14,827 nucleotides of DNA, taken from positions 1 through 14,827 of the IMG/VR virus record IMGVR_UViG_2534681999_000018; one strand, given 5' to 3'. Made by a program: the position numbers and the translations under genes. The notes beneath the pieces are model-generated. The model saw nothing but the letters and a program-made list of their open reading frames with translations. It had not been told where the DNA came from and made no database searches. The stretch is from a virus. Taxonomy: Duplodnaviria; Heunggongvirae; Uroviricota; Caudoviricetes. Below are positions 7,902 through 13,366 of the stretch, one piece after another; the stretch's first letter is position 1; the number at the start of each line of letters is the position of its first letter.

Positions 7902-8153
7902 ATGACCCAAAAACGCAGAGACAGAACAGAGCCAAAATATAAAGCGTTAGACATGACTGAGCACACCTTAAAGGTGGCAATCAGAACGATAGACCGCCAC
8001 ACGCGGGAAGGATACGCGAAGGAACATCCCGACCTGATAAGCGCATTCATGACCACGGCGGCGGCAAACTTTGCCACGCTGACAGAACGGGAGATTGCCG
8101 AAGCGGAACAGGTAACAACCATCAACGTTAAAACCGGAGAGGTGGAATTATGA
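7902..8153 (+). CDS. Hypothetical protein
   Basis: Track ORF 7872..8153 begins with GTG inside the iterons; ATG at 7902 preferred; stop overlaps the ssb start (ATGA). Confidence 0.45.
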   Translation: MTQKRRDRTEPKYKALDMTEHTLKVAIRTIDRHTREGYAKEHPDLISAFMTTAAANFATLTEREIAEAEQVTTINVKTGEVEL

Positions 8154-8560
8154 CGGCACAGATAGCCGCTTACGGGCGGCTGGTGGACGACCCGCAGGTA
8201 AAACAGACCAGCAAGGGCACACCGATGACGCTGGCGCGTATGGCGGTATCTTTGCCATGCAGCCAGGCACAGGACGGACAGGCGACGTTATGGTTATCGG
8301 TCATCGCATTTGGCAAACAGGCCGGCTTCCTGGCTAAACATCAAAAAGGCGATGTTGCCAGCGTATCCGGCACGATGCAGGTAAGCCAGTGGACCGGACA
8401 GAACGGAGAAACGCGGCAGGGCTGGCAGGTTATCGCAGACAGCGTAATCAGTGCCCGCGCGGCACGTCCAGGCGGGAACAGACGCAAAACCACAGGCACA
8501 CAGGGTAATCAGCCACCAGCGGGAGGCGATGACCCTTACGGTGATGATATTTCGTTCTGA
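8150..8560 (+). CDS. ssb: Single-stranded DNA-binding protein (SSB)
   Basis: 136-aa ORF; OB-fold-like N-terminal region, Gly/Pro/Gln-rich linker and acidic C-terminal tip DDPYGDDISF resembling the SSB DDDIPF tail. Confidence 0.8.
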   Translation: MTAQIAAYGRLVDDPQVKQTSKGTPMTLARMAVSLPCSQAQDGQATLWLSVIAFGKQAGFLAKHQKGDVASVSGTMQVSQWTGQNGETRQGWQVIADSVISARAARPGGNRRKTTGTQGNQPPAGGDDPYGDDISF

Positions 8561-8570
8561 GGGGGTGACG

Positions 8571-8843
8571 ATGGTACATGACCGCATAGCGGAGGAACTG
8601 GAGGCGAAAGGCTTTTACCGGAGGGCGGCGGCGCGATGGGGTGAAGTCATGCAGCTGGTGGAGACAGACAAGGAACGGCATCACATCACGATGCGACGGC
8701 TGGAATGTTCAAGGAAGGCACAGAGGGCACCGGAGCCGCCGGATAATTTCGGAGACCTGAAAAAGGCAGTCGATCGCACTTATGCCGAAATGGGTATAGA
8801 TGGTGCTGGTGATGAAATATGGCGCAATTACCAGGACAGCTAA
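8571..8843 (+). CDS. PerC/Pch-family transcriptional activator homolog
   Basis: 90-aa product from ATG 8571 (GAGGGGG RBS); N-terminal MVHDRIAEELEAKGFYRRAAARW matches the recalled PerC-family signature. Confidence 0.6.
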   Translation: MVHDRIAEELEAKGFYRRAAARWGEVMQLVETDKERHHITMRRLECSRKAQRAPEPPDNFGDLKKAVDRTYAEMGIDGAGDEIWRNYQDS

Positions 8844-8849
8844 TCAAAC

Positions 8850-8873
8850 AGCCGGAGAAATCCGGCTTTTTTT
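8850..8873 (+). terminator. Rho-independent terminator, copy 1 of a repeated terminator motif
   Basis: GCCGGAGAAATCCGGC hairpin followed by 7 T, just after the perC-like stop. Confidence 0.75.
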
Positions 8874-8969
8874 GCACCAGTTGAAACGGTATGGCGCATT
8901 ACCGGGTTTTCGTCACGGTCAGGCATAGTTACTATCTGAAACAAACAGACACAACAGAGGAAAAAAACA

Positions 8970-9194
8970 ATGCCGATGAAATTTGATGAGATATTAAAAC
9001 AGCGTGATAAATACCATGCTGACAACATGGAGACGATGAGCATCAATGATTATCGCGCATTCCTGGAGACGGGCGCACTGATTGAAAAGGATCAGCATGG
9101 TTTTGTGAGATGTGCTCTATCCGGTGAAATGCTGGCGGTAAATCCTGAACAGATAGATGCATTGATAGAATTTCTGAAAGAGATCAGAGACTGA
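8970..9194 (+). CDS. Hypothetical protein, moron-like (own unit between two terminators)
   Basis: 74-aa ORF with GAGGAAAAAAACA upstream of the ATG; flanked by terminators at 8850-8873 and 9215-9236. Confidence 0.5.
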   Translation: MPMKFDEILKQRDKYHADNMETMSINDYRAFLETGALIEKDQHGFVRCALSGEMLAVNPEQIDALIEFLKEIRD

Positions 9195-9214
9195 GCCAGC
9201 ACACAGCACACATA

Positions 9215-9236
9215 GCCGGAGCAATCCGGCTTTTTT
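9215..9236 (+). terminator. Rho-independent terminator, copy 2 of the repeated motif
   Basis: GCCGGAGCAATCCGGC hairpin followed by 6 T; one loop mismatch relative to copies 1 and 3. Confidence 0.75.
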
Positions 9237-9248
9237 GCGCCCAAAAAA

Positions 9249-9284
9249 AGCCCGATAAGGTCAGAGGGTTCTTATCGGGCTTTT
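9249..9284. terminator. Second hairpin, potentially bidirectional terminator
   Basis: AGCCCGATAAG / CTTATCGGGCT stem flanked by an A-run upstream and T-run downstream. Confidence 0.5.
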
Positions 9285-9360
9285 GCATATGAGGTTTTTG
9301 GATGCACTGGCGTTCGTGATCGGGATAATCATTTCATAATTTGCAACATAACTCAATATC

Positions 9361-9411
9361 ATTGCATAAAATGCAATTCTGATTATAATCAGGACTGGAT
9401 AAACATCCAGT
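9361..9411 (+). promoter_or_regulatory. Promoter upstream of the capsid operon overlapped by three palindromes
   Basis: TTGCAT (9362-9367), 16-bp spacer, TATAAT (9384-9389); palindromes ATTGCATAAAATGCAAT (9361-9377), CTGATTATAATCAG (9379-9392) and ACTGGATAAACATCCAGT (9394-9411). Confidence 0.55.
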
Positions 9412-9445
9412 TATGATTTTTTTAGTCGAAGAGGAATTTCTTACT

Positions 9446-9652
9446 ATGGCTGAAGAGAAAAAAAGCGGTGTTTCGGTGTACATAAGCCCCGAAATCGTGG
9501 AGGTGCTCAAGCAGCGCCACAAAAAAAACTATGAAGCTGGCGTTGCGGCTGGACTGGATCCGCTGATGACGCCGGAGCCGTCGATAGGTTCACTTGTACG
9601 CTCTTATTTACTTGCGGCGCTTGGGATGCATAAAAATTATGGGGGTGAATAA
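9446..9652 (+). CDS. Hypothetical protein
   Basis: 68-aa product from ATG 9446 (GAGGAA RBS); stop overlaps the capsid gene start (TAATG). Confidence 0.5.
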   Translation: MAEEKKSGVSVYISPEIVEVLKQRHKKNYEAGVAAGLDPLMTPEPSIGSLVRSYLLAALGMHKNYGGE

Positions 9653-10707
9653 TGGCAGGCAAAGCAACGGCACTTAACACTAACCAGCTTTTCATGTACC
9701 TGAATCGCGGGGATATTGCGGATTTTAAATTCAGCCCTCTGTTTACCACGCTGTTTTTCCCGAACGTGGCGACATTCAGCACGCAAAACATCATGCTGGA
9801 TACCCTGGACATTGAAGAAGTCACCATGTCGGCGTTTTGTTCGCCTATGGTGGGTAGCCAGGTTCAGCGCGATAAAGGGTACGAAACCAGCACAATCAAA
9901 CCTGGCTACATGAAGCCAAAGCACGAAATCGATCCAACGAAAACCATCATGCGCATGGCTGGAGAAGATCCGGCACAGCTTAACGACCCTACCTATCGCC
10001 GTATGCGCCTGATTACTGGCAACATGCGCCGCCAGATAAACGCCATTAAGGCACGCGTGGAATGGCTGGCGGTGAATGCGGTAACGACCGGAAAAAACAT
10101 CATTGAGGGCGAAGGCATAGAACGCTATGAAATCGACTGGAAAATACCGGAAAACTGCATCATAGAGCAGGCCAAGGGTAAAAAATGGTCCGAGCAGGAT
10201 AAAGACATGCACGACCCAATCTATGACATCGAGCTTTATGCTGATCAGGCTGGTTGCCCCGCAAACGTCATGATTATGGGCGCTGAGGTATGGCGCACAT
10301 TACGCAGCTTTAAAAAATTCCGTGAGCTGTACGATCTTTCCCGTGGTTCAGAATCCGCCGCCGAACTGGCCTGTAAAAACCTGGGCGAAGTGGTGAGCTT
10401 TAAAGGCTATCTTGGTGATCTGGCCCTTATCGTCTATTCCGGCAAATACACTGACAGCGATGGTACCGAAAAATATTTCCTTGAGCCTGATTTGCTGGTC
10501 CTGGGTAACACCAACAATAAAGGGCTGGTGGCCTATGGTGCGATAATGGATCAGGAAGCGGTAAGAACGGGCGCAACACAAAACATGTTTTACCCGAAAA
10601 ACTGGATTGAGGACGGCGATCCGGCGATTGAGTACGTGCAGACACACAGTGCACCGCAGCCGGTACCGGCAGATATTCGCAAATTTGTTACCGTCAAAAT
10701 TGGTTAA
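9652..10707 (+). CDS. Major capsid protein, lambda gpE family
   Basis: 351-aa product aligns by eye along its whole length with lambda gpE (341 aa), e.g. FKFSPLF, PGYMKPKHEIDP, DPTYRRMRLI, YSGKY, LVLGNT, YPKNW, HSAPQP. Confidence 0.9.
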   Translation: MAGKATALNTNQLFMYLNRGDIADFKFSPLFTTLFFPNVATFSTQNIMLDTLDIEEVTMSAFCSPMVGSQVQRDKGYETSTIKPGYMKPKHEIDPTKTIMRMAGEDPAQLNDPTYRRMRLITGNMRRQINAIKARVEWLAVNAVTTGKNIIEGEGIERYEIDWKIPENCIIEQAKGKKWSEQDKDMHDPIYDIELYADQAGCPANVMIMGAEVWRTLRSFKKFRELYDLSRGSESAAELACKNLGEVVSFKGYLGDLALIVYSGKYTDSDGTEKYFLEPDLLVLGNTNNKGLVAYGAIMDQEAVRTGATQNMFYPKNWIEDGDPAIEYVQTHSAPQPVPADIRKFVTVKIG

Positions 10708-10719
10708 CGGGGGGATTCT

Positions 10720-11055
10720 ATGGACACTCCATACATTGAGTTATTTGCAGGCAGTCAGCAGGTATCCACGACGTTGGTACATTTTGCCGCTGATGCTGGC
10801 GTTATTCAGGAATTTACCCCGCTGATGCTGGCAGACAATGGCGAGTTTAAGCCGTGGGATGGTCAGGAATCTGGCAAGGCTGTTTATCTGACCTCGTACC
10901 CTGTGGACACGTCAAAGCAGAAATCAGCACAGTGTTACAAGACGGGGATATTCAATATTGCCGCCGTTAACTGGCCTGAGAGCGTCGACACCGATGCGAA
11001 AAAATGCGCCGCCTTTGCGGGTTCCGGCGTATCCGTTCAGCCGCTGGCCCGATAA
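10720..11055 (+). CDS. Head decoration protein, lambda gpD family
   Basis: 111-aa product (lambda gpD is 110 aa) with TPLMLA, YKTGIFN, WPE and AAFAG segments matching gpD; GGGGGG RBS. Confidence 0.85.
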   Translation: MDTPYIELFAGSQQVSTTLVHFAADAGVIQEFTPLMLADNGEFKPWDGQESGKAVYLTSYPVDTSKQKSAQCYKTGIFNIAAVNWPESVDTDAKKCAAFAGSGVSVQPLAR

Positions 11056-11067
11056 GCAGGGGGAACG

Positions 11068-11481
11068 ATGGCAACGAATGAAAGCATCATGACGCTACCG
11101 CTGGCGAGTAAATTTAAAGTCGAAGCGCGGGCAATGGCTGACAGAGGTTTATCAACCTATGAGGCCGTATATCAACTAAACAAACTGGAAGAGCAGGACA
11201 AGCCGTGCGCTGATGCGATTATGGCGCTTCATGAGCATAAAGACTATCAGCCGCTGTTGCGTGCAATGGCAAACGTGCCTTGTATCGATGTTGGTACGGC
11301 TAAAAGCATCCTTAGCATGACCATAGAGCAGGAACGTCCGAAGGTTGCGCCGGAACTTACCGCAGCCTTTGAAAACTTTATGGACATGCACAGCCCGCAA
11401 GCCGTATCAGCTGGCATGGCATACGATGGCAGAAACCAGGGCGATGACGGCGACATCGATCGCATACTGAAAACCATCTGA
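11068..11481 (+). CDS. Hypothetical protein in the capsid/packaging module
   Basis: 137-aa ORF with AGGGGGAA RBS; no recognisable motif; between the gpD-like gene and cos. Confidence 0.55.
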   Translation: MATNESIMTLPLASKFKVEARAMADRGLSTYEAVYQLNKLEEQDKPCADAIMALHEHKDYQPLLRAMANVPCIDVGTAKSILSMTIEQERPKVAPELTAAFENFMDMHSPQAVSAGMAYDGRNQGDDGDIDRILKTI

Positions 11482-11486
11482 GACAA

Positions 11487-11509
11487 GGCCGGAGAAATCC
11501 GGCTTTTTT
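11487..11509 (+). terminator. Rho-independent terminator, copy 3 of the repeated motif
   Basis: GCCGGAGAAATCCGGC hairpin followed by 6 T, identical to the copy at 8850-8873. Confidence 0.75.
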
Positions 11510-11510
11510 A

Positions 11511-11580
11511 CGGGTCCTTCCTGGAATTATGGCCCGTTACGGGGCGGCGACCTCGCGGATTTTCGCTATTTATGAGCCTT
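11511..11580 (+). other. Lambda-type cos site, copy 1 (cosN GGGCGGCGACCT at about 11542-11553)
   Basis: CCCGTTACGGGGCGGCGACCTCGCGGATTTTCGCTATTTATGAG matches the recalled lambda cos junction (…CGTTACG|GGGCGGCGACCTCGCGGGTTTTCGCTATTTATGAA…) almost base for base; lies about 150 bp upstream of the Nu1-like gene as in lambda. Confidence 0.8.
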
Positions 11581-11686
11581 TTCAGGGTGGTGGTGGTGGT
11601 TTTGTTGTTTGATCTATCTTTATGAATGAAAAGGGAAAGATGCAAGCAATACACCAACCTGAAGCAGTAATTAAGTTGGTGTATTA

Positions 11687-12229
11687 ATGAAATCTCATCT
11701 GATGAACAAAAAAAACATGGCGAAAAGCTGCCGTGTAAGTGCGACAGCGTTCGACAAGTGGGGAGTAACTCCCGTTGAGCGTAAAGGCCGTGAGGCGTTT
11801 TATGATGTTGCCAGCGTGATAGAAAATAGGGTTAACAATGCAATTAGCCAGCTTATAAACGACAAAGGCGAGATTGACGATGATGAACTTTTACGAGTCA
11901 GGATCAGATTACTGACAGCACAGGCAGAGGCGCAGGAACTTAAAAACGATCGCGATCGCGGTGACGTGATTGATACTGAGTTTTGCCTGTACGCGCTTTC
12001 AAAGCTGGCGAGTCAGATTTCATCAATCATGGACAGCCTCCCGCTTACTATGCAAAGGAGCTTCCCACAGATTACCCCCGCCATGCTGGACAGGCTTAAA
12101 AGGGAAGTGGTTAAAGCCTGTAATGCCAGTGCCAGAGTTGCCGACAACCTCCCACAGATACTGGCTGATTACTTGAAAGAAACAACCGGAAACGTACCGG
12201 AAAAGTTGCTACAGAAGAAAGGCGAGTAA
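11687..12229 (+). CDS. Terminase small subunit, lambda Nu1 homolog (element-encoded)
   Basis: 180-aa ORF (alternative start ATG 11702, MNKKNM...); alignable with lambda Nu1 over the whole length (NKK, FYDVASVIE, LLTAQAEAQELKNDRDRGDVIDTEFCLYALSKLASQISSIMDSLPLTMQRSFPQ, PQILADYLKETTG); weak RBS. Confidence 0.85.
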   Translation: MKSHLMNKKNMAKSCRVSATAFDKWGVTPVERKGREAFYDVASVIENRVNNAISQLINDKGEIDDDELLRVRIRLLTAQAEAQELKNDRDRGDVIDTEFCLYALSKLASQISSIMDSLPLTMQRSFPQITPAMLDRLKREVVKACNASARVADNLPQILADYLKETTGNVPEKLLQKKGE

Positions 12230-12257
12230 CAGACGCGCAATTATTGAACAAAAATGA

Positions 12258-12319
12258 GAAAGGATCTGATAATGGCATTTTCTGGCTAAAATGCCTCGTG
12301 TCAGATCCTTTCTTTTTTT
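12258..12319 (+). terminator. Compound hairpin terminator after the Nu1-like gene
   Basis: Outer stem GAAAGGATCTGA / TCAGATCCTTTC enclosing inner stem GGCATTTT / AAAATGCC, followed by 7 T. Confidence 0.6.
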
Positions 12320-12379
12320 AATATTTTCATTGTTAAACAGTCTGTTACAGAGAAGAAGATCGGATCTGACTTTTGCCGG

Positions 12380-12451
12380 AAAATTCTCATAAACAGATAA
12401 AAACCGCGAGGTCGCCGCCCCGTAACGGGCCATAATTCCAGGAAGGACCCG
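12380..12451 (-). other. Lambda-type cos site, copy 2, inverted (cosN reverse complement AGGTCGCCGCCC at about 12409-12420)
   Basis: 12404-12451 is the exact reverse complement of 11511-11558 (48 bp); further lambda-like sequence (TTTATGAGAATTTTCCGG on the minus strand) continues toward the Nu1-like gene. Confidence 0.75.
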
Positions 12452-12484
12452 ACGACACCAGACTATCAGAGCGATGGGGGCACA

Positions 12485-12766
12485 ATGACAGAAGCCGAAC
12501 TACTGGGATTAATCCGCCGCGTCGCCGGAATCAGCCAGCAGCATGACGAACAGGCCACACAGCCGGACAGCGTGACCGCTGAAAATTATGTGCGTGTTGT
12601 AGCGGAAGTGATGCGCCGTGATGGTATAGAACTTAATGGCGTTGATATGCGCAACATACGGAACCGCGTTCTTGAAATGCTGGCCTACAATCGCCGCGTT
12701 GAACTGTATCGGGAGAAAGAAAAAATAACGTACCACTGGAAGAAGCCGGAACGGCTGCGGCGGTAA
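12485..12766 (+). CDS. Hypothetical protein
   Basis: 93-aa ORF with GGGGG RBS; outside the inverted cos pair; no recognisable motif. Confidence 0.5.
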   Translation: MTEAELLGLIRRVAGISQQHDEQATQPDSVTAENYVRVVAEVMRRDGIELNGVDMRNIRNRVLEMLAYNRRVELYREKEKITYHWKKPERLRR

Positions 12767-13366
12767 CTTGCTGATATTCCCGATAACGCAAAATTGCGCT
12801 GGCTACATCCTCACATCTGAGGACTGTTAATCAGAAGGCCGGAATATATTCACAAACTACGAAATTTTCGTAGTTTAATTAATGGTCAGATTAATCGCTA
12901 ACCCGCTGATATTTTCGGAAACCTCAATTTGAGGAAGTCGGAAGCGTCACCCTTCATATTCTGAATGGTCATAATGACCACGCAGACCATCAAGGCAACC
13001 ACAACGAACATCGTTACGGTTGGAGCTTTTACCCCACTGGGGGAAAGGTATTACGATAATCATAACACCTACCGAACAGGTAAAACCCACCAGCCTGATT
13101 AACAGTTAACCGGAAAAAAAATCCGGTAGCCCCGTTATGGGGATCCCCATATCGACATTAACGCCCCTCATGAATTGGTGCGCTTCCCCCTGGAAAGATT
13201 ACCCGCCTGTATATTTCTTGTGTCTATTTGTTCCACGTTGTTTCATACAGTGCACCGAACGGTGTAGTTAATGGTGTAGTCAATTTGCTGTTTTTAGCAC
13301 TTTTTGCAGTGTGGGTTGTTTAATTAAATCAATGGGTTGCCTTGCTGTGGTGATAAAAGGACATAT

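Follow-up and report, generated by a model that had tools for sequence, protein, structure and literature searches.

The DNA analysed here, a stretch of 14,827 nucleotides from IMG/VR virus record IMGVR_UViG_2534681999_000018 (the window), contains a phage-inducible chromosomal island (PICI) of the EcCICFT073 family that adjoins phoQ in E. coli O157:H7. Part of this island carries three copies of a short hairpin, each followed by a T-run. The most probable reading, to which we assign a probability of roughly 0.72, is that the three repeats are copies of one Rho-independent terminator and also the joint of a modular accessory region, in which a gene for a 74-amino-acid (aa) protein, g74, forms an optional cassette with one hairpin. 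We document here the anatomy and folding of the hairpin, variation that is confined to its loop, its occurrence in only a part of the E. coli population and its coincidence with mosaic breakpoints.

A pattern search recovered three plus-strand copies of (A)GCCGGAG[A/C]AATCCGGC followed by 6-7 T, at 8850-8873, 9214-9236 and 11487-11509. The sequence GCCGGAGAAATCCGGC occupies 8851-8866 (T7 to 8873) and 11488-11503 (T6 to 11509), and the one-base loop variant GCCGGAGCAATCCGGC, with a GCAA loop, occupies 9215-9230 (T6 to 9236). An initial annotation of the window had described three near-identical hairpins, one of them with a one-base loop variant, a 74-aa open reading frame (ORF) between copies 1 and 2, and another hairpin after copy 2. 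The sequence and the pattern search confirm the hairpins, the ORF is present at 8970-9194, and the additional hairpin is real, with fully complementary (100%) 14-bp arms at 9246-9259 and 9271-9284. Three matches with at most two mismatches compare with a mean of 0.01 in dinucleotide shuffles, and 0 of 200 shuffles reached three. A repeat finder (family D2) limited the common unit to about 22-25 nt, with unrelated flanks.

Each copy consists of a 7-bp GC-rich stem (5 GC pairs), a GNRA tetraloop and a U-tract directly 3'. All three fold as predicted stem-loops, with minimum free energies of -13.3, -15.9 and -18.3 kcal/mol in 46-nt segments (z = -3.3 to -3.9), and a consensus terminator scan picked up copies 1 and 2. 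The hairpins start 6, 19 and 5 nt past the stop codons of perC, g74 and g137, respectively, all co-oriented. Stable GC-rich stem-loops with a U-tract directly 3', downstream of and co-oriented with coding regions, have the form of intrinsic terminators, and on this basis the hairpins are predicted to terminate transcription in vivo. The features of the region are as follows:

8571-8843, plus strand: perC-family regulator gene (Pfam PF06069, E = 3.9e-43; RefSeq); accessory and optional among relatives
8850-8873, plus strand: hairpin 1, AGCCGGA-GAAA-TCCGGCT + T7; intrinsic-terminator-like, closing the ssb-perC unit
8874-8969, plus strand: leader of g74; a consensus scan gave no promoter-like site and no strong sigma-70 promoter
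8970-9194, plus strand: 74-aa ORF (g74); optional cassette gene, hypothetical protein in RefSeq
9214-9236, plus strand: hairpin 2, AGCCGGA-GCAA-TCCGGCT + T6; terminator-like, the joint at which the accessory region meets alternative packaging modules
9246-9284, no strand assigned: second hairpin of A7, a 14-bp stem and T4; bidirectional-terminator-like, first element of the capsid module
9285-9412, plus strand: regulatory leader of the capsid module, with palindromes ATTGCATAAAATGCAAT and TGATTATAATCA and TTGCAT-16 nt-TATAAT at 9362-9389
9413-11481, plus strand: capsid module (79-aa ORF, major capsid protein, decoration protein, 137-aa ORF)
11487-11509, plus strand: hairpin 3, GGCCGGA-GAAA-TCCGGCT + T6; terminator-like, ending the capsid module 2 nt before cosQ
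11510-11586, plus strand: lambda-type cos site (cos1), with cosQ GGGTCCT at 11512-11518 and cosN-like GGGCGGCGACCT at 11542-11553
11687-12229, plus strand: Nu1-type small terminase gene, terS (Pfam PF07471, phrog_57)
12251-12319, plus strand: a different stem-loop + T7 after terS (repeat finder, sequence)
12376-12451, minus strand: inverted second cos copy (cos2), 76 nt, 91% complementary to 11511-11586, with no adjoining hairpin

Relatives were taken from 80 SSB-anchored IMG/VR loci, mostly from E. coli and related to one another, which were chosen independently of the hairpin; this and all other IMG/VR and genome-scan counts are among the matches listed. The 80 loci provide 61 distinct-context copies, in which the second loop position is the only one that commonly varies (A in 36, C in 21 and T in 4, corresponding to GAAA, GCAA and GUAA). 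A GGAA loop and a 5-nt GAAAA loop were also seen, and changes in the stem are singletons, leaving aside five look-alike copies at another position. Because the variation is confined to the N of GNRA, it fits selection on an RNA hairpin. The look-alike, AGCGGCAGAAATGCCGC + T7, has two base pairs flipped and sits between int and alpA in other islands (e.g., 2419-2445 of locus L006); since its position is different, we rejected it as evidence of covariation.

The exact 22-mer GCCGGAG[A/C]AATCCGGCTTTTTT also has at least 120 occurrences in unrelated bacteria (Bacteroidota, Bacillota, Pseudomonadota and others), against about 0.1 expected by chance by our own estimate. It is present there in single copy, mostly just past ORF ends; in 86 of 110 cases a long ORF ends no more than 80 nt before it, compared to 13.8% for random positions. 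This placement at gene ends indicates a sequence that makes a good terminator in general and has emerged repeatedly, and the occurrences across unrelated bacteria are convergent terminator sequences. Within E. coli, the hairpin is not a core-genome element: it was found in 1,012 of 5,426 complete genomes, with a median of 2 copies, and approximately as many genomes (1,043) carry the queried PICI region. The hairpin therefore resembles other intrinsic terminators in its stem, loop, 6-7 T and location 5-19 nt past co-oriented stop codons, and in having an identical sequence at gene ends of unrelated bacteria. It differs in that three near-identical copies lie within 2.7 kb and in that the number of E. 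coli genomes that contain it is close to the number carrying one phage-satellite family. A search of the whole window against Rfam gave no match at E values up to 1.

Among the relatives, the same 22-25 nt recur amid differing surroundings, which suggests that the hairpin doubles as the joint in an accessory region built of modules. The 80-locus set contains the following arrangements, in which HP denotes the hairpin:

perC-HP-HK97 module: about 15 loci
perC-HP-g74-HP-HK97 module: about 13 loci
perC-HP-g74-HP-E-type capsid module: about 20 loci
perC-HP-E-type capsid module: about 19 loci
ssb-HP (GAAAA loop)-capsid module, without perC: about 7 loci
ssb-HP, then a second cos type: rare; the arrangement of E. 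coli Nissle 1917, where the capsid module comes after that cos

All four combinations of perC or perC plus g74 with the lambda E-type or the HK97 capsid-forming module are present, with a single hairpin at each joint. When distinct contexts are tabulated, window-type perC appears joined, by way of the hairpin, to the leader of g74, the capsid module, the HK97 module or a cos site.

Alignments to relatives also break at the hairpins. BLAST segment ends, which are approximate breakpoints only, fall within 12 nt of hairpins 1 and 2 in 65 of 218 internal cases (7800-12800), although these zones make up 2.8% of the interval; because the loci are related to one another, this count is descriptive and is not a statistical test. 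At hairpin 1, segments end at 8871/8872 in 25 relatives, and at hairpin 2 they end at 9214/9215 and 9235. Partial matches in E. coli genomes likewise stop at hairpins. Where islands have no g74 (e.g., locus L135), the two BLAST segments overlap by exactly one hairpin, and the ZH063 alignment runs through perC, a single GCAA-loop hairpin and the capsid module. A capsid-forming PICI (locus L005) at the roxA-phoQ site of an O157:H7-like strain has 93.9% identity to window 7900-9235 and is unrelated right after hairpin 2. It shares the perC-g74-hairpin 2 arrangement of the window but carries an HK97 packaging module, as do many other loci after hairpin 2.

No breakpoint, in contrast, coincides with hairpin 3, which moves together with the capsid module and abuts cosQ; the breaks near it occur at 11575-11587, inside cos at the cosN/cosB boundary, where terS is swapped for the 144-aa gene of EcCICFT073. 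The earlier proposal that the repeated terminator marks module boundaries is supported for hairpins 1 and 2 by the segment ends and the four combinations, but not for hairpin 3.

The g74 gene and one hairpin are present or absent between otherwise collinear flanks. Neither ZH063, EcCICFT073 nor many other islands contain g74; the order there is perC-HP-capsid, as in about 19 IMG/VR loci. Comparison with related elements, which the initial annotation had called for, shows that the gene between the terminators does vary while its flanks remain the same. Given the four architectures and an EcCICFT073 that lacks the gene, g74 plus one hairpin behaves as an optional cassette. By its sequence it is low in GC (42-45%, versus 57-59% in ssb and perC upstream) and moron-like, with hairpins 1 and 2 bracketing the gene as direct repeats.

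The 74-aa gene had been put forward as a candidate moron, and much of this holds: it is extra DNA between genes that are adjacent in relatives, it is followed by what looks from the sequence like its own terminator (hairpin 2), and its base composition is distinct. As to a promoter, no site passed a consensus scan of 8874-8969, and only weak hexamers could be seen by eye. Morons of lambdoid phages, reportedly described by Juhala and colleagues and by Hendrix and colleagues in 2000, are similar in consisting of an extra gene and terminator of differing base composition between genes adjacent in relatives. Unlike them, g74 resides in a satellite rather than a phage, and the scan gave it no convincing promoter of its own. 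Since distant satellite-like islands carry homologues in the corresponding slot, the gene may be part of satellite biology instead of being host-benefit cargo. We rejected the idea that the g74 leader is a degenerate cos remnant: its alignment to two cos regions was matched or beaten by shuffles in 111 and 57 of 500 trials.

Close homologues of g74 are limited to E. coli, and an exhaustive HMMER search added only a small set of distant matches with about 40% identity. Of the three homologues with an informative context, two directly follow a primase or RepA gene in islands that resemble satellites; one sits between the iterons of a replication origin (ori) and an HK97 capsid gene, with no hairpins there. 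The recurrence of remote homologues in the same slot, past the replication gene, of other satellite-like islands points to a satellite-associated gene family, not random cargo. The protein belongs to phrog_1957, a PHROGs family of unknown function, and its only Pfam match was a sub-threshold one to DUF7189. Searches of PADLOC gave no match and those of PDB sequences nothing significant. A confident AlphaFold2 model (pLDDT 83.4) has the order helix, helix, short strands, helix, and Foldseek found no match to it in the PDB at E values up to 0.001. In other satellites the homologues are placed between replication and capsid genes, and from this our guess is that g74 might act in satellite-helper interplay or in control of the packaging module.

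These observations can be arranged into a working model. Hairpin 1 would close the ssb-perC unit; hairpin 2, backed by the bidirectional hairpin that begins no more than 10 nt past it and is kept at the start of every E-type capsid module, would close the g74 unit; and hairpin 3 would close the capsid operon 2 nt before cosQ. In relatives the accessory region takes the form of ssb-HP, ssb-perC-HP or ssb-perC-HP-g74-HP, and after it comes the lambda-type capsid module, the HK97 capsid-forming module or the second cos type. Exchange would take place by short-homology recombination in the hairpin, for instance while a helper phage grows in a cell with two resident PICIs. Only tentatively do we extend this to the terminator being an actively used crossover point, on which, for example, helper-phage recombinases act in co-resident replicating satellites, with accessory genes (perC, g74, extra cos) and packaging modules being exchanged at a standard joint.

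Several points weigh against treating the hairpin as both terminator and joint. The breakpoint loci are phylogenetically non-independent and mostly from E. coli. Many other module junctions in these islands have no hairpin (8139/8153, 8560, 8794, 11575-11587 and 12485), and on its right-hand side the E-type/HK97 swap stops at the start codon of a 93-aa gene. Part of the pattern could stem from selection for junctions between genes. Every hairpin position retains a signature of its own (G or A ahead of the stem, A or C in the loop), indicating that exchange within the hairpin is too infrequent to homogenise the copies. Finally, the scan gave no clear promoter for g74, and three strong terminators in one co-oriented gene string leave downstream expression to be explained.

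Some of these points favour a simpler explanation, which we regard as possible but doubtful, that the hairpins are ordinary terminators only and that junctions coincide with them since the surviving recombinants are those broken between genes. The mosaics would then stem from illegitimate recombination and subsequent selection, each cassette having brought its own terminator of common descent. Hairpin-free junctions at gene boundaries and the flank and loop signatures retained at each position agree with this explanation, as does a sequence that is a generic good terminator arising repeatedly in unrelated bacteria. However, it does not readily account for junctions that fall inside a 22-25-nt element, with flanking segments overlapping by exactly its length, or for one upstream gene being joined through it to four unrelated downstream contexts. 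In addition, perC-HP-capsid islands carry A, C, T or G in the loop, as if crossovers fall on either side of it. The combination of terminator and joint that we favour has a parallel in lambdoid phages, for which conserved "linker" or boundary sequences were reportedly proposed as sites of modular exchange by Susskind and Botstein in 1978 and by Clark and colleagues in 2001. Both are short conserved boundary sequences with unrelated flanks in a mosaic family of mobile elements. The difference is that the linker here is a functional-looking terminator of about 22-25 nt that joins classical and capsid-forming PICI packaging modules.

A string of co-oriented genes with several strong terminators calls for either separate promoters or antitermination. 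For the capsid module a separate promoter is plausible, judging from its leader. Antitermination seems to us an unlikely general answer. The terminators would then be regulatory punctuation, keeping the island silent when quiescent and being read through on induction by a processive antiterminator, such as the AlpA-type activator or the helper Q protein, so that in the presence of a helper it is expressed as a single long unit. From alpA onward, the genes of the island indeed all share one orientation, with several strong terminator-like hairpins in between. Induction of EcCICFT073 requires the activator AlpA (PMC6092414), and the AlpA of Pseudomonas aeruginosa is a processive antiterminator that works in E. 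coli too (PMC7969949). Yet in a phmmer search of the PDB with the PICI AlpA, the sole match was 8c3t (E = 2e-6), a structure named "AlpA family phage regulatory protein"; AlpA chains from P. aeruginosa were absent at E values up to 1, and the same search with the alpA-like ORF of the window gave nothing significant. Because homology between the PICI and Pseudomonas proteins was not detected, antitermination stays speculative; moreover, the capsid module has its own conserved promoter-like leader.

The position of hairpin 3 raises the question of packaging. Two nucleotides after it lies GGGTCCT, which we take to be the cosQ heptamer of the lambda literature, and 23 nt further on lies GGGCGGCGACCT, which is the lambda cohesive-end sequence by comparison with the right end of lambda. 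The cos1 region has a 95.6% match to E. coli phages, and the order g137-hairpin-cos is kept in relatives with an intact g137. In loci selected on the hairpin, about half of the 190 listed copies precede, by 2 nt, a cosQ-like GGGTCCT of the lambda type or of the second cos type, the latter homologous to the prophage cos region at the left end of the window (448-650). The hairpin might thus be part of a DNA-level packaging signal, an inverted repeat with a T-run needed by cosQ, and not primarily an RNA terminator. Lambda and most lambda-type phage cos sites do carry a different palindrome at exactly that distance from cosQ, TGATAATNATTATCA followed by a T-run. It is AT-rich, however, and unrelated in sequence to the PICI hairpin. 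No cos lies beside hairpins 1 and 2 or beside the copies that precede HK97 modules, inverted cos2 copies have no hairpin at all, and variation restricted to the free GNRA position points to an RNA hairpin. Because hairpins 1 and 2 and cos2 show that hairpin and cos are separable, we rank a packaging role as a minor alternative and a rather improbable one.

The phage palindrome is an observation in its own right. A perfect 7-1-7 palindrome, TGATAATCATTATCA, with a T-run lies 2 nt upstream of cosQ at window 424-458 and at 48452-48479 of lambda (J02459), and palindromes of this type occur in most lambda-type phage cos sites listed in IMG/VR, whereas PICI cos1 has the GC-rich terminator instead. 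TGATAATCATTATCA matches the Fur-box consensus.

The gene-hairpin-gene-hairpin look of the array recalls integron cassettes, likewise optional genes each followed by a hairpin, but an attC-like site-specific system or a small mobile repeat (REP/MITE-like) is highly improbable and was rejected on anatomy and distribution: the perfect 18-nt stem-loop with its T-run is far shorter than the imperfect attC hairpin of about 57-141 nt, the sole integrase is a P4/arm-type tyrosine integrase (arm-binding and Phage_integrase domains) at the island end rather than an IntI, there is no Rfam match, and the sequence is absent from about 81% of E. coli genomes, with a median of 2 copies in carriers.

The element itself has the gene content of a PICI: an integrase, an alpA-type regulator, a replication gene with ori, co-oriented genes over about 10-12 kb, no lysis or tail genes, and a helper-type cos with cosQ and cosN motifs (11512-11553) and an inverted copy (12376-12451). 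It encodes a DUF4222 protein, a RepA-type helicase, ssb, perC, a gpE-type capsid protein, a gpD-type decoration protein and a Nu1-type terS, with the two inverted cos sites. Identity is 100% with E. coli O157:H7 chromosomes over window 8560-11700 and 99.85% with the roxA-phoQ island of strain 4276 over 4845-14827. Parts of the ZH063 island, whose annotated proteins have the same accessions as EcCICFT073 proteins, have 92-94% DNA identity to the window. In the phage database no record holds the region, apart from a 45-nt cos match. Two matches labelled as plasmids contain the island between chromosomal genes, with roxA on one side and phoQ on the other.

EcCICFT073 and EcCIEDL933 are the models of classical and capsid-forming PICIs, respectively (PMC6092414, PMC6739421, bioRxiv 10.1101/2022.09.08.507074). 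EcCICFT073 shares with the island in the window the phoQ site, with a common phoQ-side attachment site for the right-hand part, the DUF4222, rep, ssb and perC backbone, the capsid-E/D module and cos1/cos2, and it has two copies of the hairpin. Compared to EcCICFT073, the window additionally carries the g74 cassette, and it has a Nu1-type terS where EcCICFT073 has a 144-aa, rppA-sized gene; the left end of the window comes from a prophage-embedded PICI. Helper-phage-dependent induction and transfer have been demonstrated for EcCICFT073 (PMC6092414). Of the two cos sites of EcCICFT073, cos1 is essential (PMC6739421).

Positions 1-5100 of the window are not the roxA flank of the phoQ-site island, which the window matches from 4845 onward. 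At the left end, the prophage cos region (about 448-650) is followed by a gene resembling a DUF1441 small terminase (687-1163) and by a gpA-type large terminase of which the N-terminal ATPase half is left (1160-2167), truncated shortly ahead of the integrase (2329-3567). The arrangement is that of a helper-embedded PICI, as in PMC10111431. Among the listed best matches, 1-5300 is not spanned by any complete E. coli genome, the best covering 1-5102, and the window looks like a hybrid of two PICIs, formed by rearrangement or by an assembly join. After the alpA-like ORF, at 3798-3823, there is another GNRA-loop terminator-like hairpin, ACCCCGC-GTGCAAT-GCGGGGT + T5. Direct repeats of AAAAGTGAGG-like units at 7700-7911, between the RepA-type helicase gene and the next ORF, are probably replication-origin iterons.

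In the capsid module, a 79-aa ORF is followed by a lambda-gpE-type major capsid protein (9652-10707), a gpD-type decoration protein (10720-11055; Pfam PF03864 and PF02924, PHROGs, RefSeq) and finally the 137-aa ORF, g137 (11068-11481). The leader at 9285-9412 is conserved over 46 distinct variants. Of its two palindromes, TGATTATAATCA contains a perfect TATAAT, and a stem-loop with T7 lies just before the first ORF. The TTGCAT-16 nt-TATAAT sequence is a putative promoter, with its predicted -10 at 9384-9389, and the leader as a whole looks like an operator-controlled one. g137 (phrog_1999) matches the C-terminal end of head-maturation-protease profiles (phrog_53, positions 495-567 of 583), a region that in lambda corresponds to the Nu3 scaffold, and the island may thus encode capsid, decoration and scaffold-like proteins. 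Downstream, inverted cos copies (76 nt, 91% complementary) bracket the Nu1-type terS. EcCICFT073 and ZH063 have at that position the 144-aa gene, a size reported for rppA. The small terminase had no match among solved structures (for RppC or Nu1).

Taken together, comparison with relatives largely supports the initial interpretation, with refinements. Intrinsic terminators, morons and linker-type mosaic boundaries are established concepts, and this satellite family is known. The word "terminator" is absent from PMC6092414, PMC6739421 and bioRxiv 10.1101/2022.09.08.507074, so the repeated PICI terminator and its role as a joint appear undescribed in these papers. If the hairpins are not a joint, they are ordinary terminators in a known element. 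If they are a standard joint, this would explain how backbones that are more than 90% identical, at one chromosomal site, come to carry unrelated packaging modules, and it would show where new cargo is to be expected or inserted. PICIs disseminate genes for virulence, defence and interference, and work is under way to turn them into delivery vehicles. The hairpin is a simple sequence tag for finding such satellites, and for g74 the comparison narrows the candidates to a small satellite-associated family between replication and capsid genes. Should the hairpin prove to be a crossover point, satellites of the classical (lambda-capsid-type) and the capsid-forming (HK97-type) kind could be converted into each other on a single backbone.

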